From Thomasclavelia sp. (lineage in GTDB: Bacteria; Bacillota_I; Bacilli_A; Erysipelotrichales; Coprobacillaceae): DNA of 64,000 bases. A program made the position numbers and the translations under genes. Location: positions 15,397-79,396 of the forward strand of contig NZ_JBKTWO010000005.1 in NCBI RefSeq assembly GCF_047249845.1, written 5' to 3'. Every line of letters begins with the position of its first letter. The first letter of the stretch is position 1. This document shows positions 28,893-39,476 of the stretch, in pieces. The notes beneath the pieces were generated by a model, which searched no databases, was not told the origin of the DNA, and saw nothing but the letters and a program-made list of their open reading frames with translations.

Positions 28893-29729
28893 TTAATATT
28901 TTTCACCACTTAATAAATATTTCCATGTATTTTTTCCAACTATACCATCTTGTTTTAAATCACGATTTTTTTGAAATACCTTTACTGCATTTTTAGTTTT
29001 AGTCCCAAAGATTCCATCTTCTACAATATTAAAACCAACACTATTTAACCTCTCTTGAATTAGTTTAGTTATATTACCACATGCATTTAATTTTACCATT
29101 GGACAAGCTATTAAAATATTAATAGAATTTATACCATTAACTATTAGGTTACTTGAATATTGTCTATTTAATTCCTCTTGTAATCTAGCAATCCAATCAT
29201 CATATTTACCACTTGGATTTTCATTACAAATTCCTCGATAAATTGCTTCTGCAAATTTATCAGAACCTAGCATTAGATATCTATTAGCATCCTCACTATC
29301 AACAAAACAAACTTCAACTAAGATACTTTTAGCTTTAGTTTTCTTGATCACGTATAAATTACTTCCATCTTTAACTCCACGATTATTAAAATCTAATAAT
29401 TGAATATTTTTACATATATTTAAAGCTGGTTGTAATTTCTTACCCTTATATGTATATACTTCAATGCCCTTTCCACCACCTGCATTAAAATGAACTGATA
29501 TAAAATAATCCACATCCTCTCTATTAGCAAGTTCAACACTTTTCTTTAAATATTCTACTTGAGTATTAGCTTTATCAACTGTACAGTTAATTACTTTATG
29601 TCCACTATTTTCTAATAGTCTTATTAACTTTTCTCCTACTTTGCGTGTTTCAATGCTTTCTTCTATGATTCCTACAGCACCACTTCCCGGCCCTTTTAGT
29701 GTATGACCACAGTTAATTGCAATTTTCAT
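28893..29729 (-). CDS. Endolysin: Amidase_3 with C-terminal PG-binding domain
   Basis: INCGH, E, SVHFNA and LVEVCFVD zinc-amidase motifs; DGIFG..T..AVK.FQ....L..DGIVG..TW. Confidence 0.92.
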   Translation of the reverse strand: MKIAINCGHTLKGPGSGAVGIIEESIETRKVGEKLIRLLENSGHKVINCTVDKANTQVEYLKKSVELANREDVDYFISVHFNAGGGKGIEVYTYKGKKLQPALNICKNIQLLDFNNRGVKDGSNLYVIKKTKAKSILVEVCFVDSEDANRYLMLGSDKFAEAIYRGICNENPSGKYDDWIARLQEELNRQYSSNLIVNGINSINILIACPMVKLNACGNITKLIQERLNSVGFNIVEDGIFGTKTKNAVKVFQKNRDLKQDGIVGKNTWKYLLSGEKY

Positions 29730-29976
29730 ATAATCTTCTATCTTTCAATCCAGGGGTTGTTGGGTCATTAATTGCATTAAACACACTAACAAATACCAAA
29801 CTTAATACATAGGGATTTTTAAAAGCATCAATTAATAAATTGATTAGAGTACCCCAAGTAGTTATATCTTCTGCTCTTAATCCAGCATATGCTAAAATTG
29901 GCGTTAAGACAGCTAATATCATTTGTACTAGAAAAACAGGATTCTTTAATCTGACTCTTAAATTTATATTTTTCAT
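29713..29976 (-). CDS. Phage holin (phi LC3-like)
   Basis: INLRVRLKNPVF and DPTT.G motifs, two TMs, immediately upstream of the amidase. Confidence 0.85.
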   Translation of the reverse strand: MKNINLRVRLKNPVFLVQMILAVLTPILAYAGLRAEDITTWGTLINLLIDAFKNPYVLSLVFVSVFNAINDPTTPGLKDRRLYENCN

Positions 29977-29988
29977 AATATTATTTTA

Positions 29989-31269
29989 TTAAGCCGTTCT
30001 TTTCCACATATAACAAGTAATATAAGGTTGTACCTTTGATGGAGTTCCACCATTTGCTTCCAATACTACTGTACTATGATTTACAGCAAATGAGGAAGTA
30101 GTAGTTGCATGTAAGTTCAAATTATACTCTCCATGACCTGGAACTGGATTGGAAGCTTGATATCCTATTTTATTTGTATCTCCACCTATTGCTCCAATTA
30201 ATGCTCTTAATTCAACACTTTTTGAGCCGCCTGTTTTTTCTACATAACTAAAATCATTATCACTAGAATCTACACCAACTGGAACTCTACCATTACCCCA
30301 TCTAATCCATGTACCACCAAAAGTTGTTTGAGGTGATACAGAAGATGTACTCATATATATACAACCGATAGGATGCATTAATAAAAATAATTGTTTTGTT
30401 AGAGCTGTTACAGAATTAAAAGCATTTTTTAATTCTGTTATTTGATCTAAAGCAATCATATTAAATTTTTTATTCCAAGCTGTATTACTTTTTAGATAAA
30501 AATCTCCATTAGCTGTATTAACATAAAAGTCACCATTTTTACCTAAAGAAGATGCTGGAGTTGTAGTTCCATTTCTAATAATCACGACACTATTAGCTGC
30601 ATCATTTGCTCTTTGAGTAGCCTGATTGGCATTAGTTGTTGCAACTTTTGCATCATTGGATGCATCTTGAGCATTTTTAGCTCCCTGGGTAGCTAATATA
30701 GTAGCATTTCTTGTGTTACTTGTAGCACTTATTGAATCTGCTACTGCTGAAGTAATTTCATTTTGTTGGGTTATCGCTCTTTCAATTAATTTATTCACTT
30801 CGTTTTGATGATGATTAGATGTGCTAAGTAATTCGCTAACTACATCTTTTACATTTAAATCAATATAATCATCGGCCACTTTAATTACCAGATCCTGCCA
30901 AGTATTTTCTTCAGGTAAAATATTACCCTTACCAGCAGTAGCTTTTACTTTATAGATAATAGGATTAGTCTGTATTGTTTCACTTCCATTTGAAAGTGAA
31001 AAAGCTATTGCTAGATAACCATCTAACTCAAAAGCTTGGGGTGGTAATTTAAAAATATCATTATTTATCATTAATTGATATGTTTTAGAATCCCTATTAT
31101 TTTCTAAAAAACGATTATTTAAATACTTATAGTGTGGTACCACAACATAATTTTCATATTTACCATCTTTTATAAATCTGAATTCAATATCTCCACTAAA
31201 CTGTGCTGGAATATCAGTAATATCACATGATAAATCATACCCTATTTGGGTAATTGTTGATACAATCAT
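29989..31269 (-). CDS. Baseplate-upper / receptor-binding tail fibre protein
   Basis: BppU-like N-terminus, Ala-rich coiled coil, G..GDFY motif, C-terminal PIG.IYMS...P...FGGTW...GRVPVG...QPYITCYMWKRTA; last structural gene before the holin. Confidence 0.75.
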   Translation of the reverse strand: MIVSTITQIGYDLSCDITDIPAQFSGDIEFRFIKDGKYENYVVVPHYKYLNNRFLENNRDSKTYQLMINNDIFKLPPQAFELDGYLAIAFSLSNGSETIQTNPIIYKVKATAGKGNILPEENTWQDLVIKVADDYIDLNVKDVVSELLSTSNHHQNEVNKLIERAITQQNEITSAVADSISATSNTRNATILATQGAKNAQDASNDAKVATTNANQATQRANDAANSVVIIRNGTTTPASSLGKNGDFYVNTANGDFYLKSNTAWNKKFNMIALDQITELKNAFNSVTALTKQLFLLMHPIGCIYMSTSSVSPQTTFGGTWIRWGNGRVPVGVDSSDNDFSYVEKTGGSKSVELRALIGAIGGDTNKIGYQASNPVPGHGEYNLNLHATTTSSFAVNHSTVVLEANGGTPSKVQPYITCYMWKRTA

Positions 31270-33165
31270 TTAATTATTTCCTCCTTCTATTTTTTCATTT
31301 AACTCCTGAATTGCTTTATAGACAATTGCTAAAGCATTAATAATATTAATCTTTTTTTTATCGCTACTAAGTAGCTTATCTGATATTTGATAATTATTGC
31401 CTGTTAAAAAACTAATCTGATTATCATTATCTTGTTGATAAGTATAAATATTTGTATTAATTATTTCATTTAAAGCATTTTCATTAAATAATTTAATATC
31501 TTGATTTATTTTTTCTTCCTGATTTAAATAAACATTATTAATATCAATTTTATTTACCATTAGTTCATCTGGTTTTAGATGACCGTTCTTATAACTATTT
31601 CCATCTGGTAAAATTACTTTCCAATCTAAAATACTAGTCGAATTACTATTCATATTAAAAGATAGTTTTCCTTCTTTAGGATTATCATTAACCTGATAAT
31701 CACTTGTACTTTGTAATCCTCTATCAGTTATCTTCCAGCCACCAATAAATCCATCATTACATTCAATCATTATATCTTTTAAACATCCTTTTTTTATATA
31801 TGAAGCATCTAATTCTTTATTTATTCCCCAGGCAATATTAAACGGTCCTTCCTTACCACTATTACTAAAGGCTATTCCACTAGCATCAATTCTTAAAATA
31901 TTTTGAGCCGAATTAATATCATCACTATCCATATAATAAGTAGCTCTTGGTTTACCAAAGCTATCAGTTTTAGTATATACATAACCACCATTAGTACCAT
32001 TTATTAAATCTACTTTGTCTTGTACCAGTTCTTGAAATAACTGTGTATTCAAATTGAGATTATTATTTACTTTTGATATATCTCGATTAGTCGTAATTGC
32101 TAAATCTGAACTTGTTGCAATAGTTTTATCTAAAGTTATTTTTGAATTAGAGGGATCAAGATAATCTTTTTCTAAAACTACACATAAAAAATAATCATCT
32201 ATTTTATGTTCTTTTGAGACACACTTTAAATTATCCCCTAATCTAATCTTTTCAATATCAACTTCAACTAATGATAAGTCAATAGCTGTAATTGTTAATG
32301 ATAAAGACATTTTAGTAAGCTGGGATAAATCCTGTTTTGCCCTTTCCAACAAATCATCAGGATCACTGATTTTAGGATATTCTCTAACCCCATAGATCCA
32401 GCCATATTTTAATATGGCATCTTCATCATAGATATACTCTTTACCATCATTTACTTTTTCTATTGTTATTGGTAAATCTGTTTTTGGATCCTTTTCACCT
32501 AACGGAATCAGAGCTGTTATTAGATCTACAGATGTTATGTATTGTTCTAAGTCTAGAATATTTTTCTTAAACTTTATTTCTTGCGAATTTAAATGATTAT
32601 AGTAGTAGTTATAATCAAGATAATTTTTATTATCTTCTTCTCTTATTGATATATAACCTCCACATTGATCAATTAATATATCTTGAATACTACTCATTGT
32701 AGTTGTTCTTTTTTTATCCATATTAGAGATACAAATTCCATTATCAAATACATCTCCAACATATATATTTTTTTCTTTTTCAACCATCTGATTATGCTTA
32801 TCCAAACACACTTTTAAATATTCATTAACACTAATATTTTCTCCTGTCTTTAATAGCTGAATAGTATCATTTAAGTATCCTAATACTCCTTCACAAATAA
32901 AAGTCCTAATGCCATCAATAGTATCAGTACTTTCAATTACACGCCCCTTAAACATTAATTCTTGACCATCCTGATTTATCTCAATAAGTCTTATTATTGA
33001 AACGAGTTTATTAATTTTATTATAATTAGGATGATTGGGTAATATAGTAAAAATTAATGTATTTGATGTATTAATTTTTTGTTTTAAATTAAGCTTAACA
33101 CAACGATAATCATAATCTGAAGTATCATGAATAATATAATCATCACTTAACAATTTAACTATCAT
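31270..33165 (-). CDS. Tal / tail spike (prophage tail endopeptidase-like) with S74-like C-terminus
   Basis: F.ILPNHP, CEG.LGYLND, TALIPLG and YGWI motifs; C-terminal KAIQEL; follows Dit. Confidence 0.8.
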   Translation of the reverse strand: MIVKLLSDDYIIHDTSDYDYRCVKLNLKQKINTSNTLIFTILPNHPNYNKINKLVSIIRLIEINQDGQELMFKGRVIESTDTIDGIRTFICEGVLGYLNDTIQLLKTGENISVNEYLKVCLDKHNQMVEKEKNIYVGDVFDNGICISNMDKKRTTTMSSIQDILIDQCGGYISIREEDNKNYLDYNYYYNHLNSQEIKFKKNILDLEQYITSVDLITALIPLGEKDPKTDLPITIEKVNDGKEYIYDEDAILKYGWIYGVREYPKISDPDDLLERAKQDLSQLTKMSLSLTITAIDLSLVEVDIEKIRLGDNLKCVSKEHKIDDYFLCVVLEKDYLDPSNSKITLDKTIATSSDLAITTNRDISKVNNNLNLNTQLFQELVQDKVDLINGTNGGYVYTKTDSFGKPRATYYMDSDDINSAQNILRIDASGIAFSNSGKEGPFNIAWGINKELDASYIKKGCLKDIMIECNDGFIGGWKITDRGLQSTSDYQVNDNPKEGKLSFNMNSNSTSILDWKVILPDGNSYKNGHLKPDELMVNKIDINNVYLNQEEKINQDIKLFNENALNEIINTNIYTYQQDNDNQISFLTGNNYQISDKLLSSDKKKINIINALAIVYKAIQELNEKIEGGNN

Positions 33166-33599
33166 AACTTTTTGTCCTCATCATTTAAATAATGTTTTTT
33201 AAAAGGTTCAGCAAGAATATTAATTGTTATCTGATTAACTAAATTATTATCTCGATTATCCACCTCTATTGATACTCTGCCTTCATAATAATATTCACTA
33301 TCACTAGTTATAACCGCTTTAACTTTTTGACCATGAAATAAATTAAATAATTCTTCAATATATTTATGCCATAATTCTGTTTTTTCAACACTATCAACAT
33401 TAATACTAATTACTCTTTGCTGGTATGTTGGCTTACCATACACCTCAGTTAAATCTACATAATTATTTGAATATGGAATTGCAACAATATTAGTTATTAC
33501 TTCAGGCGCACCAATATGATAACTAAGAATTCTCATTTTAAAATCATCTCTTAATGAATAACTTTTTTTCTCATCTTGATATAAAATCAAATCTATCAT
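33162..33599 (-). CDS. Distal tail protein (Dit)
   Basis: IP......DLTE..G...Y..R, HGQ, YYYEGR and AEPFK motifs; lies between TMP and Tal. Confidence 0.75.
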   Translation of the reverse strand: MIDLILYQDEKKSYSLRDDFKMRILSYHIGAPEVITNIVAIPYSNNYVDLTEVYGKPTYQQRVISINVDSVEKTELWHKYIEELFNLFHGQKVKAVITSDSEYYYEGRVSIEVDNRDNNLVNQITINILAEPFKKHYLNDEDKKL

Positions 33600-35437
33600 G
33601 CCCCATGTCTCCCCCTTCGGCTAGTTTCTCTACCTAATTCAATATCTACAGTTGGGGTAACGATTTTACCAACTGCTGTTTTATCCATATATACATCCAT
33701 TTTAATTTTTGCCATACTAGTTGCCAGCTTATCATAATCAATTAAATCTTCATTAGCAGTATTTTGTTTACTAAACTCTAAAGATATGTCATTACTAAAC
33801 CATCTAGCAGAAGATCTAGCTGACTGTCTTAATTTCTTAAATCCTGAATCAGTAACATTTATCATATCTTTTGTTGCTGAGGGCATTGCTAATTCAAAGC
33901 CAACTGCAATACCACTTGGTAAATATCTACCAATTTCATCACGCATCTTATGTGATGGCGAAAAAATATCAAAGAAACCGGTTATTGCATCCATTACCCC
34001 TTTACAAGCTTCCATTGCTATGTCTAATAGACCACCAATCCCTTTTTTAAATCCATCAATAATTCCACTAATGATATCTTTTCCTAATTGCAGCCAATTA
34101 GTATTGACGATCGTATCTTTTATATTTGATACAATTGTTTTAGCTAATTCTTTTATATTATTGATTAAATTAGAAATACCATTTAAAATAAACGTCATTA
34201 CATCTTTACCTAACTGATACCAGTCTATTTCTTTAATTTTAGCCATAAAGTTGCTCATTAACTCATATCCAACTTCAATTAAACTACCAACTAAATTTTT
34301 TATTCCATCAATAATATTTTGTAAAATCTGTTTACCACTTTCTAATAACTCTGGTCCTTTTTCAATTAATGCCATAATAAACTGAGATATTATTTCTGGT
34401 ACCCTTTCAATTAAACCTGGTAAAGCATTAAAGATACCGGTTATTAAACCATCTAATAAATTCATTCCAGTTTCTAAAATTGCTGGTAAATTTACAATTA
34501 ATCCCTCAATTAAAGCCATTACCATATCTAATGCAGCTGGTATAAGTACAGGAAGCTGGGCAGCTAAACCATCAACTAAACTCAAAATAAGAGTTAACGC
34601 TGTTTCTGCCAACATAGGTAAATTTTCCATTATCCCTAATAATAATTGACTAATTATTCCAAATCCAACTTCTGATAATTGTGGAGTTAGTTGGTTAATC
34701 GTTTCACATACTGTTGTTAATATCCCACTTGCAGTATCAATAATCCCAGGTAAAGCTGCTATTATTCCTTCCATCATTTGGGTTAATAAGTTTGATCCGG
34801 TTTCTAACATTGCATCAGTCCCGCCACTATTAAACGACTCTTGCAATTGTGCTACGGCATCAATTCCAAAATCTGCCATTTCATTAAGCGGAGCTTCAAG
34901 ACCAGCAACTAAACTTTGACCTAAAGCATTTACACCTTGATCAATCGTTTTCATCTTTCCTGAAAAACTCTCAAATGAATTACCTATTTTTAATACCTGT
35001 TCAATACCACCTTTAGCCATATTGATGATTGAACTTCCAACCCCTTTTATAACACTGCCAATACTCTTAGCTACACTTCCAATTTGCTTAACACTTTGGC
35101 TCCAATTTTTAGACTGTTTATCCGCTGATTCCCTAGTGACTTTATTAGCTTTTTCATTACTACTAGTCAATATATTTAAAGCATTGCTATTAACTGAATT
35201 AATTACTTTACCTGTTGCATCCACAATTCCACTCGATGCAGTTGCTATTCCTGAGGCTATATCTGAAATAGTACTTCCTAAAGTTTTAGCAAGATTTCCA
35301 ATTGTTTCACCTAGTGCACTAGCAATATCGCTAATCATATCCATGATTGCCCCACTTGCTTCTTTAACAACTGTGGGAATTACTTTAATTGCAATCTTTA
35401 ATTTATCTATCTTACTGCCTTGATCTTTTTTATCCAT
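33596..35437 (-). CDS. Tape measure protein (613 aa)
   Basis: Long amphipathic Ala/Gly/Ile repeats with periodic Pro/Trp; GKDII.GII.G and FFDIFSPS...RDEIG..L..GIAVG TMP C-terminal motif. Confidence 0.88.
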   Translation of the reverse strand: MDKKDQGSKIDKLKIAIKVIPTVVKEASGAIMDMISDIASALGETIGNLAKTLGSTISDIASGIATASSGIVDATGKVINSVNSNALNILTSSNEKANKVTRESADKQSKNWSQSVKQIGSVAKSIGSVIKGVGSSIINMAKGGIEQVLKIGNSFESFSGKMKTIDQGVNALGQSLVAGLEAPLNEMADFGIDAVAQLQESFNSGGTDAMLETGSNLLTQMMEGIIAALPGIIDTASGILTTVCETINQLTPQLSEVGFGIISQLLLGIMENLPMLAETALTLILSLVDGLAAQLPVLIPAALDMVMALIEGLIVNLPAILETGMNLLDGLITGIFNALPGLIERVPEIISQFIMALIEKGPELLESGKQILQNIIDGIKNLVGSLIEVGYELMSNFMAKIKEIDWYQLGKDVMTFILNGISNLINNIKELAKTIVSNIKDTIVNTNWLQLGKDIISGIIDGFKKGIGGLLDIAMEACKGVMDAITGFFDIFSPSHKMRDEIGRYLPSGIAVGFELAMPSATKDMINVTDSGFKKLRQSARSSARWFSNDISLEFSKQNTANEDLIDYDKLATSMAKIKMDVYMDKTAVGKIVTPTVDIELGRETSRRGRHGA

Positions 35438-35481
35438 ATTATCATCTCCTTTAACAAGAAAATGTAATGGCTCAAAGGCTC
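35438..35481 (-). promoter_or_regulatory. Putative RNA switch: GAGCC-ttt-GAGCC plus hairpin occluding the TMP Shine-Dalgarno
   Basis: Minus strand GAGCCTTTGAGCC then ATTA-CATTTTCTT-gtta-AAGGAGATG-a-TAAT-ATG, which can pair over the SD. Confidence 0.55.
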
Positions 35482-35483
35482 GA

Positions 35484-35648
35484 TTAAATTACTTTTCCAT
35501 TTTTAATTTCTATTTTATTTTCATAACCACATTTTTTACATTTAATAAATAGTCCCCCACAATTGGCTTTATTGTCATATAATAAAATCTTTTTATTGCA
35601 ATGATAGCAACGAAACCAGTCTTTTCTCATTGGTGGTATTTTTATCAT
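35484..35648 (-). CDS. 54-aa C4 zinc-finger protein, Mu Com-like
   Basis: Not in ORF track. GGAG RBS; MIKIPPMRKDWFRCYHCNKKILLYDNKANCGGLFIKCKKCGYENKIEIKNGKVI with RCxxCxK...IKCxxCxxxN pattern. Confidence 0.75.
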   Translation of the reverse strand: MIKIPPMRKDWFRCYHCNKKILLYDNKANCGGLFIKCKKCGYENKIEIKNGKVI

Positions 35649-35660
35649 CTATCTATCTCC

Positions 35661-36227
35661 TTACCATAAAACCTGAGCAATCATTTCATCATTTATCTCA
35701 ATTTTATCTAGACTTAATTCATGTTGAATTTTACGGATTCTTGCTCGTTCTTTTTTATCACTTATGTTAGATAAATCTATTCCCCGATAATACATTCTCT
35801 GTTTTAATTCACAATCACCTAAACCATGAAATAATGCTAAAAAATGAAACCAGTGCATATTTTCTTTTAAAAGATTTATTTGATAATGTTGTTGAAAAGC
35901 GGCAATAAAATAACCACTATCTATTTTGTAATCATAAATTCTTTTTTTACTACTTAATTTATTATTTGTTGATAATTGTTCTTTTTTATTATCAACATTC
36001 CCAATTAAAAAATCTTTTATTGCTACAAAAACTTCATGATCAAATTTTTCAGGTATTTCATCATAAAAAATATTCATTAAAACATTAGCCAAATATTCTT
36101 TATTGCAATTAGGGATATTTAAAGCATCGCTCAACTCAATCCAATATTTAAAATCTGTATTGATTAAAAAGTCTTTGTTCCTAACAGCGATGCTGTTAGG
36201 TAAAGACTCATATAATAGATTAATCAT
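35661..36227 (-). CDS. Gp15-like tail assembly chaperone (A118 type)
   Basis: LP.......INTDF..WI, D..ID...I.AAFQQ.Y.I.L....MHW..F.ALF.GL motifs. Confidence 0.8.
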   Translation of the reverse strand: MINLLYESLPNSIAVRNKDFLINTDFKYWIELSDALNIPNCNKEYLANVLMNIFYDEIPEKFDHEVFVAIKDFLIGNVDNKKEQLSTNNKLSSKKRIYDYKIDSGYFIAAFQQHYQINLLKENMHWFHFLALFHGLGDCELKQRMYYRGIDLSNISDKKERARIRKIQHELSLDKIEINDEMIAQVLW

Positions 36228-36594
36228 TTATTGTAGATAATTTACGACGTTGGGCTCTGTTTTTTGGTTGTAAAGACATTCTTCTTAAAGTCATTTCTTC
36301 ATTTGCTTTTTTATTCATATTTACTAAGCTGATAAAAGCTTCTTCATACAATCTTAGATTACGTTTATTTTTGAATAATTTTTGTGATGTTCCTTTGCCA
36401 AATACACTATCAAAAAATCTGTGATAACATGTACATAACTCTTTTATTCGATCCATATCTCTGCCATCCTTGGGCATATCTTTACAATTATCGCTTAGCT
36501 CATACATTGCTTTACTATAAGACTCTAAAAAGTCTACATCCTCAAAATCTGCATTCAATTCGATTTCATTATATTTCCATTTTACTTGGCTCAT
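36220..36594 (-). CDS. Tail assembly chaperone
   Basis: FFD.VFGKG...KLF and C-terminal NRAQRR motifs; lies between MTP and gp15. Confidence 0.7.
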   Translation of the reverse strand: MSQVKWKYNEIELNADFEDVDFLESYSKAMYELSDNCKDMPKDGRDMDRIKELCTCYHRFFDSVFGKGTSQKLFKNKRNLRLYEEAFISLVNMNKKANEEMTLRRMSLQPKNRAQRRKLSTIND

Positions 36595-36610
36595 AGGCTC
36601 CTCCTTTATT

Positions 36611-37096
36611 TTATTTAAATGTTACTGATGCTCCTTCAGCATCTAAAGTGGCAATACCTTTAATACTACTTGATTTAGATTTTAAAGTTCCAGTGTAAGA
36701 ATACGTATCTGCATTATCTCCATCAGTTCCCGGAATAATTGCAAATAATCGTTTTCTTGCTTCAAATTCATTATTATTTTCACCTACTGGTGATGTCATA
36801 TCAACAATTACGATTTCACGTACAGCAGCACTTCCTGTTTTTTCGTCTTCAGTAATTTCTATAATATCCTTATGTACCTCATTATTTGTATATTGATCAA
36901 AGGTATATTCAATTGATGGACTATATCCTGTAACATCTGTGATTTCTCCAGTTTCATCAACATACTGACGAGCATATTCTTTTGGATTTGCACTTTTAGA
37001 CATAGCTGTAAACCCTGTCATTCTAATAAATTTTTCCCCTACTTTATAAAAAGCAACTTTTTTATTTCTTGTTACTAATGTTTGTTCTCCTGCCAT
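36611..37096 (-). CDS. Major tail (tube) protein
   Basis: S.NP....RQYVDE......TGYSP motif, strong AGGAGG RBS, position in the tail module. Confidence 0.75.
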   Translation of the reverse strand: MAGEQTLVTRNKKVAFYKVGEKFIRMTGFTAMSKSANPKEYARQYVDETGEITDVTGYSPSIEYTFDQYTNNEVHKDIIEITEDEKTGSAAVREIVIVDMTSPVGENNNEFEARKRLFAIIPGTDGDNADTYSYTGTLKSKSSSIKGIATLDAEGASVTFK

Positions 37097-37098
37097 GA

Positions 37099-37509
37099 TT
37101 AATTCCTCCTATATAAAATTCTTAACTTTACTTGGTATTTCGCTGTATTTGTTTCTCTAGTAATTTGATTACTATTTTCAATAACCTCAATTGCATAAAC
37201 TTCTTCTTGAAGATTAGGATAATTACCAATTGTATTTTGCGTTTGAATCCATTTTTCAAACATTTCATAAAATTCAATATTTTTTTGATTAATACTATAA
37301 TCATTACTATATGATTCTATTGAAGTTATAGCAAACTGATATTGTTGAATTGATGATCCATCTACATACTGTTTTACAACTGGTTCACATGGTATTTTAT
37401 CAACAGAATATTCATTTGCTTCATTTCCAAGATAATCAATATTTATATTTTTCTGACTTAGATAAGGACATGTATACAAATACTCCCTTACTGCTTTAAT
37501 TACACTCAT
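37099..37509 (-). CDS. Tail terminator / completion protein
   Basis: YVDGS...QYQF, N..FYE.F..WI..QN..G..P and AKYQ motifs; directly precedes the MTP. Confidence 0.65.
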   Translation of the reverse strand: MSVIKAVREYLYTCPYLSQKNINIDYLGNEANEYSVDKIPCEPVVKQYVDGSSIQQYQFAITSIESYSNDYSINQKNIEFYEMFEKWIQTQNTIGNYPNLQEEVYAIEVIENSNQITRETNTAKYQVKLRILYRRN

Positions 37510-37553
37510 ATTAATACTCCTTTTGTTTTACACCTAATTTAGATATTACTTTT

Positions 37554-37976
37554 TTAATTAAATAAACACGGGTGTAACTGTTTTATTAGTTTGATTTGTT
37601 CATCTAAACCATATAACTTTCCATTTTGATAAGATATTTTATTCATATCTATTAATTTTTTTAATAAATTAATATCTTTGACATTATAATTATTTGTTTT
37701 TTCTATAAATGTATATTTAAAGTTAATCTCTTTAATATCTTTTTGATATTTACTTTTCCAATATTTTAGCTCTTGTTCAAGTTTTCCGATATTAATCTCA
37801 TTTATTCCGCTCTTTAAATATCCTAAGTCTTCTTTTAATTTTTTTATTTGACTATCCTTTACACTCATTTTCCTTTTCCATTCAATAATATCCAGTTGAT
37901 GTAAAAGCATGATATCTTCCATTTGCTTCTTTGTTAAATTATTAACTCTTTTTAAATCTTTTCTTTTCATATTCAA
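37554..37976 (-). CDS. GP20-like capsid scaffolding protein, diverged vestige
   Basis: MKR..L....LT..Q...IM..H N-terminus, coiled coil, KL.GLDEQIK.IK..HP.LF GP20-like motif; ends right after that motif. Confidence 0.6.
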   Translation of the reverse strand: MNMKRKDLKRVNNLTKKQMEDIMLLHQLDIIEWKRKMSVKDSQIKKLKEDLGYLKSGINEINIGKLEQELKYWKSKYQKDIKEINFKYTFIEKTNNYNVKDINLLKKLIDMNKISYQNGKLYGLDEQIKLIKQLHPCLFN

Positions 37977-37980
37977 TTTT

Positions 37981-38057
37981 ACCTTTTATCTACGCTTTAT
38001 TAATGTGAGTTGCTCTCACTTGACGGCTTGCCTTTTTACGCCTTGCGCTATGGCTTA
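37981..38057 (-). ncRNA. Candidate structured cis-regulatory leader upstream of the GP20-like gene
   Basis: GC-rich island with GCC-N9-GGC-GTAAAA and GTGAG-agcaa-CTCAC hairpins, then AAAGCGTAG before the RBS. Confidence 0.4.
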
Positions 38058-38103
38058 GATAATATGCATATTATTTTTAGTAGCCATCACTGACTACACT
38101 CAT

Positions 38104-38150
38104 ATCTTATCATTTAAATTAACTAATTTAGTCCCAAATAAATCCCAATA
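38104..38150 (-). promoter_or_regulatory. Activator-dependent late promoter of the tail operon
   Basis: TTGGGA direct repeats 11 bp apart in place of a -35 (38132-38137, 38143-38148); extended -10 TGaTAAGAT (38104-38112). Confidence 0.55.
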
Positions 38151-38151
38151 T

Positions 38152-38577
38152 TTATAATTCCTTAGTGCTATGTTTATTCGCAATTGGTGCTAATACCTTG
38201 TCAAGTTTATTACATGCATTACTTAGTATCTTATAATATGTTGTTCTTGAAATGCCTTTTTCTAAAGCGTTATATTCACGTTTTGAGGAATTATCTGGAT
38301 CATTTGCGTATATTAAAACACAATTTTTTTCTTCTTCATTAAGTAAATCATTTATTGAATGCTCTAATCTTTCTATAAAAAATTGATAATAAAATATAAT
38401 TTCATCATACTGCTTACATTCTTCTATTAAATTATTTGTTTTTTCTATTATTTCACTATGGTCATCGTTTACCAAACTAGTCTTTTTAATTTCTACTTGT
38501 TCTTTAGTATTATTTAATAACATTAATGTATGTTTCCATCTTTTCCAATTCTTTAATTCATATTTACTTTCCTTCAT
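38152..38577 (-). CDS. ArpU/RinA-like late transcriptional activator
   Basis: 141 aa, coiled coil then L.EEE...V...Y and ISRTTYYKI...A..KL C-terminal HTH; directly upstream of the structural genes. Confidence 0.65.
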   Translation of the reverse strand: MKESKYELKNWKRWKHTLMLLNNTKEQVEIKKTSLVNDDHSEIIEKTNNLIEECKQYDEIIFYYQFFIERLEHSINDLLNEEEKNCVLIYANDPDNSSKREYNALEKGISRTTYYKILSNACNKLDKVLAPIANKHSTKEL

Positions 38578-38595
38578 CCCTTACCGCCTTTCTTT

Positions 38596-38815
38596 GTAGA
38601 CAATTTATCTACTTATAGTTAAAAAAACATAAAGCATCTCTGCTTTATTCTTCTCTAATTATACTTATTATTGTTCTAATTAAATCACCTTTCCTCCCCC
38701 TTTTATTGCAGAACCAACTTCTACATTAAATATCTTAATATTTTGTAGAAAAATTGTCAACACATTAAGATATAAACATTGATTTGTTGAAAAAAAGGAT
38801 ACAAAATGTTAAAAT
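38596..38815. promoter_or_regulatory. Divergent promoters with four GTAGA-N7-TCTAC operator-like sites
   Basis: Sites at 38596, 38708, 38745 and 38786; leftward TTGACA-17-TAAGAT (38760-38732); rightward TTGAAA-17-TAAAAT (38787-38815). Confidence 0.75.
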
Positions 38816-38837
38816 ATTATTACTATGATAAAAGGAA

Positions 38838-39476
38838 GTGAAAATCATGTCACATATGGGAAATAGAATAAAAAAACTAAGAGAACAGCATAAAATGACT
38901 CAGGATGATCTTGCTCAACAGTTAGGATACTCCTCTCGCTCATCAATTAATAAAATAGAAATTGGAAGAAGTGACCTTCCACAATCAAAGATTCCTTTAG
39001 CTGCTAAAATTCTTCATACTACTCCTGCCTATATCTTAGGGTGGCAAGAATCACTTAAACCAATAGATCATGAATTTGAAAAGATTCCTGTCTATCCTCC
39101 CCTATGTTGTGGTGATGGATGGTTTACAGAGGATAATATTATAGATTATATATCTATTCCTAAAAAAATGCTGCAACCCCACAAACAATATTTTGCAAAC
39201 TATGCTATGGGTGATTCCATGAAAGATGAAAATATTAATGATGGTGATCTTGTAATATTTGAACATACTAATCTTATAAATAATGGTGAAATTGGATGTT
39301 TTAATATTGACAACAATGAAGCTACATGTAAGATATTTAAACGTGATCCAAAAACTTCAATTATTATGCTTTTACCTGCAAATAATAATTATCAACCAAT
39401 TATTATTACCTCACAAAATATTGGTTTTAAGGTTATTGGTAAATTAGCTCTTGTTATAAATAATCGTCAACGATAA
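38838..39476 (+). CDS. CI/LexA-like repressor (XRE HTH plus S24 peptidase)
   Basis: MTQDDLAQQLGY.SRSSINKIE HTH; LCCG cleavage site; GDSM Ser and ATCK Lys dyad. Confidence 0.92.
   Translation: MKIMSHMGNRIKKLREQHKMTQDDLAQQLGYSSRSSINKIEIGRSDLPQSKIPLAAKILHTTPAYILGWQESLKPIDHEFEKIPVYPPLCCGDGWFTEDNIIDYISIPKKMLQPHKQYFANYAMGDSMKDENINDGDLVIFEHTNLINNGEIGCFNIDNNEATCKIFKRDPKTSIIMLLPANNNYQPIIITSQNIGFKVIGKLALVINNRQR

Follow-up and report, generated by a model that had tools for sequence, protein, structure and literature searches.

The window analyzed here, a stretch of 64,000 nucleotides from Thomasclavelia sp., contains a run of phage tail genes between positions 28893 and 39476, in the order CI-like repressor, activator, scaffold remnant, tail completion protein, tube, chaperone, Gp15, zinc finger, tape measure protein (TMP), Dit, Tal, baseplate/receptor-binding gene, holin, and amidase. 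The CI-like HTH/S24 repressor (38838-39476, plus strand) is divergent from the late-activator-like gene (38152-38577, minus strand), the pair lying within 38152-39476, and all remaining genes are on the minus strand. These comprise the scaffold remnant (PF06810), tail completion protein, and major tail protein (36611-37976), a tail assembly chaperone-like gene whose role is suggested by its position (DUF6673; 36220-36594), gp15 (PF06854, E 7e-32; 35661-36227), a Com-like C4 zinc-ribbon ORF of 54 aa (35484-35648), the TMP gene (613 aa; 33596-35437), which matches TMP families of PHROG at E values down to 1e-51, the Dit, Tal, and baseplate/receptor-binding genes (29989-33599), and the holin and amidase endolysin (28893-29976). 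Dit and Tal each share 4 nt with the preceding gene, and the baseplate/receptor-binding gene abuts its neighbor, an arrangement in which these genes may be translationally coupled. Ahead of the scaffold remnant, positions 37991-38055 (minus strand) yield a sub-threshold match to Rfam GP20-b (28.3 bits, cut-off 36.2, E 0.009).

Within 28893-39476, no terminase, portal, capsid, or integrase gene was found by ORF mapping and family searches, and the SPP1-type portal, the one portal family searched, was found in none of the four genomes that hold the cluster, the window's own genome being 81% complete. The headless state, which the earlier note on this DNA had not mentioned, is shared with three congeners; four of the 11 genomes of the genus hold the cluster. 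Both flanks of the locus are common to congener G001 and one is common to congener G009, in which the scaffold ORF was not seen. For all cluster genes with computable dS, dN is well below dS, and the tube proteins of two relatives carry the labels Thomasclavelia cocleata and T. saccharogumia. Judged from its genes, the cluster is a conserved headless tail locus in Thomasclavelia and a candidate F-type tailocin. No literature on a headless tail cluster of Thomasclavelia was present among the best 10 of 156 entries listed. Monocin of Listeria (PMC11830787) and efagin of Enterococcus (10.64898/2025.12.13.693970) are F-type tailocins with a similar layout, namely a chromosomal headless cluster with regulators, terminator, tube, two chaperones, a TMP close to 620 aa in length, Dit, hub, receptor-binding gene, and lysis cassette. 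The present cluster, as a candidate of this kind, differs in its host lineage and in its scaffold remnant and zinc-finger switch. The window's own genome also has a second gp15-TMP junction (G000:C15:37673-38110), where neither the zinc finger nor the repeat described below is found.

In phage lambda, the G/GT system relies on a programmed frameshift before the tape-measure gene. The genes considered here occupy the same genomic slot and would likewise set chaperone supply relative to TMP; unlike G/GT, the chaperone gene and gp15 are separate ORFs, overlapping by 8 nt, and control is predicted to be exerted by a trans-acting RNA-binding protein. A stop codon immediately 5′ of the gp15 ATG makes a chaperone-gp15 frameshift fusion impossible at this locus, and a G/GT-type frameshift was rejected here for that reason.

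The small ORF between gp15 and the TMP gene, described in the earlier note as encoding 54 aa with four cysteines, is confirmed at 35648-35484 (minus strand). It has the pattern CxxC-x19-CxxC, and its own AAGGAG overlaps the gp15 stop. Compared with three congeners, its dN/dS of 0.16-0.26, at a dS near saturation, indicates purifying selection, and its predicted fold is a four-strand zinc ribbon (pLDDT 90). Single-sequence searches retrieved four proteins, all 87-100% identical, together with one false locus (L001); because such searches are nearly blind, profiles were needed, and these gave a family of 242 representatives at E<=0.001. Cysteines C14, C17, C37, and C40 are invariant in 24 of 24 family members. 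The ORF matches PHROG 5602 and 6417, searches of NCBIfam and PDB sequences retrieved generic zinc ribbons alone, and none of the entries listed holds RNA. The zinc finger of phage RG-TP1 is unannotated. At two loci (L030 and L033), the zinc finger lies directly 5′ of an integrase-like ORF, and in L030 the repeats are located farther downstream.

Two nucleotides past the TAA stop of this ORF lies GAGCC-TTT-GAGCC (35481-35469, minus strand; hereafter site A), as the earlier note had described. The pattern GAGCC-N2-4-GAGCC occurs at three sites in the 3.11-Mb genome, as against 0.43 expected from the single-unit frequency, and two of the three are within the tail cluster. Its distribution was assessed in a gp15-selected sample of 94 loci, of which 89 were scorable; at 70% identity these form 46 clusters, counting that of the window itself. 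Zinc-finger loci supplied the gp15 query, so loci of that class are enriched, although the motif played no part in the selection. The strict repeat lies 3′ of gp15 in 20 of the 23 zinc-finger clusters and in none of the 23 others, and thus the conservation beside homologues that had been proposed as a check is found; two of the three exceptions have GAGCC-N3-GCGCC and one has none. On a gp15 tree of 58 of 62 clusters (four short rows were dropped), there are 11 state changes of the zinc finger, and the repeat tracks it in a mean of 5.7 of 7 independent pairs and never changes in the opposite direction (median p 0.03). When loci were selected by the protein alone (68 fetched, one not re-found), a tandem repeat was located near the stop in 56 of 67 genome loci, non-tandem units alone in five, and none in six. 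Rfam has nothing at site A or at the second site described below, with no match in 20 related loci. Several variants were noted within the family. In L124, one GCGCC unit replaces GAGCC at both sites, possibly a concerted change of specificity. Visual inspection of L006/L011, L034, L043, L044, L046-L050, and L274-L278 showed the zinc finger and GAGCC repeat ahead of a terminator-like stem that has the second unit in its 5′ arm and is followed by prohead protease or scaffold genes, suggestive of antitermination.

The last CC of site A lies within a stem over the TMP start (35434-35470, minus strand). The earlier note had proposed that a hairpin in an ATTA/TAAT register, placed after the repeat, buries the TMP Shine-Dalgarno up to the ATG. 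A hairpin (35464-35443) does cover the AAGGAG (35451-35446) ahead of the AUG (35437-35435), but the ATTA/TAAT register has a probability of 0.13 in context. In the preferred register (probability 0.83-0.93 in context), the one conserved in the family, CC-AU from the second repeat pairs with AUG-G; the stem thus takes in part of this repeat and buries the start codon as well. When folded by itself with flanking sequence, the hairpin has z-scores of -1.3 to -1.6, and 0.0 for the longest piece, whereas a trimmed 31-mer has -4.2; as this hairpin alone is unremarkable, the case rests on comparison rather than on a single fold.

For this comparison, leaders were definable in 38 of 39 zinc-finger clusters, with leaders defined by the motif and start codons picked by script, and were set against 22 of 23 TMP starts lacking the zinc finger. 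The median cost of opening the Shine-Dalgarno and start is 17.8 kcal/mol in the 38 zinc-finger leaders and 4.4 kcal/mol in the 22 others; blocking the motif lowers the former to 7.0 kcal/mol, whereas blocking an equal adjacent stretch leaves it at 17.7 kcal/mol. In the conserved register, GCC-R-Y from the second unit is matched to the start codon plus the following G(C). Pairing holds in 85% of cells, compared with 74.9% after shuffling (0/500), a test that relatedness inflates, and in 23-43% for slid registers. The stem covaries across homologues, a check that the earlier note had also suggested, and it follows the start codon, one pair being U-A where the start is AUG (27 leaders) and C-G where it is GUG (six); two of five covariation measures (pairs with two-sided change and further pair types) do not exceed shuffles. 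In a duplex test, cognate arms pair better on average, at -6.5 versus -3.8 (0/10000 permutations), but rank best in only six of 38. A stable mini-hairpin formed by GAGCC itself is not supported, as its flanks pair inconsistently. A promoter and terminator scan did not rise above shuffles, and no terminator was found in the TMP leader. In L226-L260, from Clostridia MAGs, the repeat seems by eye to have its pairing partner, GGCTC, among the first TMP codons and not in a long leader stem.

These features resemble the Com system of phage Mu. Mu Com recognizes CC(N)2-3GAG, its SELEX consensus is GAG(N)2CC twice, and the motif adjoins a stem holding the mom GUG start (PMC6483171); known homologues sit before mom or methyltransferases (PMC3299994). 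Both systems have a small C4 zinc finger and a tandem GAG..CC motif containing CC(N)3GAG, the CC-to-GAG spacer being 3 in 37 of the 38 zinc-finger leaders. In both, the motif overlaps an inhibitory stem with the Shine-Dalgarno and start codon, and in Mu CCCAC pairs with GUGGG in what appears by eye to be the same register as in the TMP leaders. By contrast, the unit here is GAGCC, not GAG(N)2CC, and lacks the two variable bases, leaving a mini-stem of 2 bp alone (3-4 bp for Com); the CxxC pairs are 19 residues apart rather than 16; the gated gene encodes TMP rather than mom or a DNA-modifying enzyme; and a second site occupies an upstream start codon. Furthermore, the site lies past the zinc-finger stop, whereas in Mu the target is within the com reading frame and does not follow the gene as the earlier note had it.

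The sequence kinship of the two proteins is weak. The zinc finger scores 14.3 bits against Pfam Com (PF10122, Zn_ribbon_Com), below the cut-off of 22.9, and PF10122 is absent among the best 25 of 54 families listed for 24 family members. No Com occurs among the named entries of the best 50 fold matches, and none was found at E<=0.001. An hhalign profile score of 93.8% against Mu Com was rejected as evidence, since an unrelated control zinc ribbon reached 92.8%. phrog_6417 is matched by Mu Com (3e-10) and by six of the seven family members tested, with no match for the control ribbon. The protein would thus work like Com without being filed as a member of the Com family. The earlier proposal that a Com-like protein opens the TMP hairpin is thus partly supported: by sequence, membership of the Com family is weak, but in many gut phages the repeat and stem accompany the zinc finger, and loci that lack it lack them too. 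From sequences, co-occurrence, covariation, and computed accessibility, we infer a protein that binds these sites: the zinc ribbon is, with good probability, a Com-like RNA-binding protein, a likely activator of the TMP gene and a predicted repressor of the chaperone genes and of itself. The sign of its action differs in certainty between the sites; activation at site A is highly probable, and repression at the second site has somewhat better than an even chance.

That second site (site B; 36588-36606, minus strand), which the earlier note had also overlooked, is another GAGCC-N3-GAGCC (36600-36588) and covers the last base of the Shine-Dalgarno, the spacer, and the AUG (36594) of the chaperone gene; the first unit lies outside the coding sequence. 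Among the gp15-selected clusters that could be scored, 14 of 22 with the zinc finger and none of 23 without it have site B, and phage RG-TP1 has exactly sites A and B as tandem repeats in 36 kb. The chaperone begins ATG-AGC-C in 28 of 37 clusters with the zinc finger versus none of 21 without it, residue 3 being variable. On independent pairs, site B changes the same way in 3.5 of 7 and the opposite way in none (p 0.25, not significant). Decayed remnants of site B alone were seen at the chaperone start of L066 and L067, zinc-finger-less relatives of L069/L071, and L067 retains Met-Ser-Gln with a synonymous change of the Ser codon. The protein may instead act in one direction only, activating TMP, with site B neutral, a sink, or stimulatory. 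Such a role would accord with the absence of site B from 13 of 37 zinc-finger clusters overall (24 have it), with its degeneracy in the three congeners, where the first unit is GAGTC, and with Com being known solely as an activator (PMC6483171, PMC3299994). It is nevertheless unlikely, given that site B keeps its place on the Shine-Dalgarno-AUG spacer and AUG in distant phages, is present in none of the clusters lacking the zinc finger, and has no occluding structure (4.6 vs 4.7 kcal/mol), so that binding there would have nothing to melt.

Under the preferred dual role, the late transcript would first yield chaperone, Gp15, and zinc finger, with the TMP start still paired. Accumulated zinc finger would then occupy site A, pull GCC out of the stem, and free the TMP start codon; TMP would be made into a ready chaperone pool, followed, through coupling, by Dit, Tal, and the baseplate gene, as the 4-nt overlaps of TMP, Dit, and Tal would extend the gating as far as the tail-tip genes. 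On site B, the zinc finger would block 30S loading at the chaperone gene, and because of the 8-nt chaperone-gp15 overlap and the Shine-Dalgarno on the gp15 stop this block would reach gp15 and the zinc finger, throttling all three in a negative feedback. The predicted net outcome is that chaperones precede TMP, with feedback. The earlier wording that TMP is kept "off until late" is loose, as the zinc finger sits in TMP's own late gene run.

Plain translational coupling, with ribosomes that finish the small ORF melting the stem and the peptide itself inactive, would suit the short distance from the zinc-finger stop to the motif start, which is at most 17 nt in 34 of 38 leaders and 2 nt in this window. 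It is improbable, as it fails for leaders in which site A keeps to the TMP start 95, 338, or 869 nt from that stop, two of them with a whole gene between, a persistence that argues for action in trans; the invariant GAGCC units, conserved cysteines, and site B are also left unexplained. The protein might also bind and repress at both sites, stabilizing the TMP stem as a late shut-off, since the sign is unreadable from sequence alone and site B looks repressive. This is very improbable: GCC of the second unit is within the stem in 31-38 of the 38 leaders, so that binding competes with pairing, the stem is closed even when free, and the Mu precedent is one of activation.

A different doubt concerns the Thomasclavelia copy, which may be a decaying relic of a genuine family switch with TMP no longer gated. 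Its stems are the weakest of the set (8.3-8.4 kcal/mol), and the GCC:GGC pair is lost because its TMP starts Met-Asp, in addition to the degenerate site B of the congeners. In this window's leader, second lowest of the 38, the value falls from 8.4 to 5.3 kcal/mol, and blocking the 13-nt motif frees the AUG, the Shine-Dalgarno core remaining paired as it slips into the ATTA/TAAT register. Against decay, the ORF, repeat, and stem are retained in all four congeners with the cluster at a dN/dS of about 0.2, and we consider it very unlikely. That the GAGCC repeats are DNA operators of a small transcription factor, to which their 8-bp period as direct repeats and the possibility of DNA binding by zinc ribbons lend some color, is hardly credible, as the tandem matches listed for 44 loci are all on the sense strand of the zinc finger, adjoin covarying RNA stems, and overlap ribosome sites.

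In a wider reading, which we offer tentatively and at somewhat less than even confidence, an RNA-binding protein of ~50 residues would serve as an assembly timer for the long non-contractile tails of gut Bacillota phages: the same GAGCC repeat would repress the chaperone, gp15, and zinc-finger genes and activate TMP and tail-tip genes, replacing the G/GT frameshift in setting chaperone-to-TMP order and ratio, and the module would also have been put to use for antitermination ahead of head genes and have persisted in Thomasclavelia as part of a domesticated tailocin. In literature queries, the broad ones covering the best 10-30 of up to 587 entries, no listed entry described a switch built from GAGCC and a zinc ribbon at the TMP gene or the chaperone genes. 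The frameshift model has so far been the main account of how phages balance abundant chaperones against few TMP copies, and the proposed switch adds a second mechanism, open to direct testing, in a gene that is widespread and routinely unannotated. If true, Com-type control would no longer be confined to one Mu operon but would also govern virion assembly, and it would gain a repressor role, and a 13-nt site with a 50-aa protein of position-dependent sign would constitute a compact regulatory part. The zinc-finger gene would then have to be included when such tails or tailocins are expressed.
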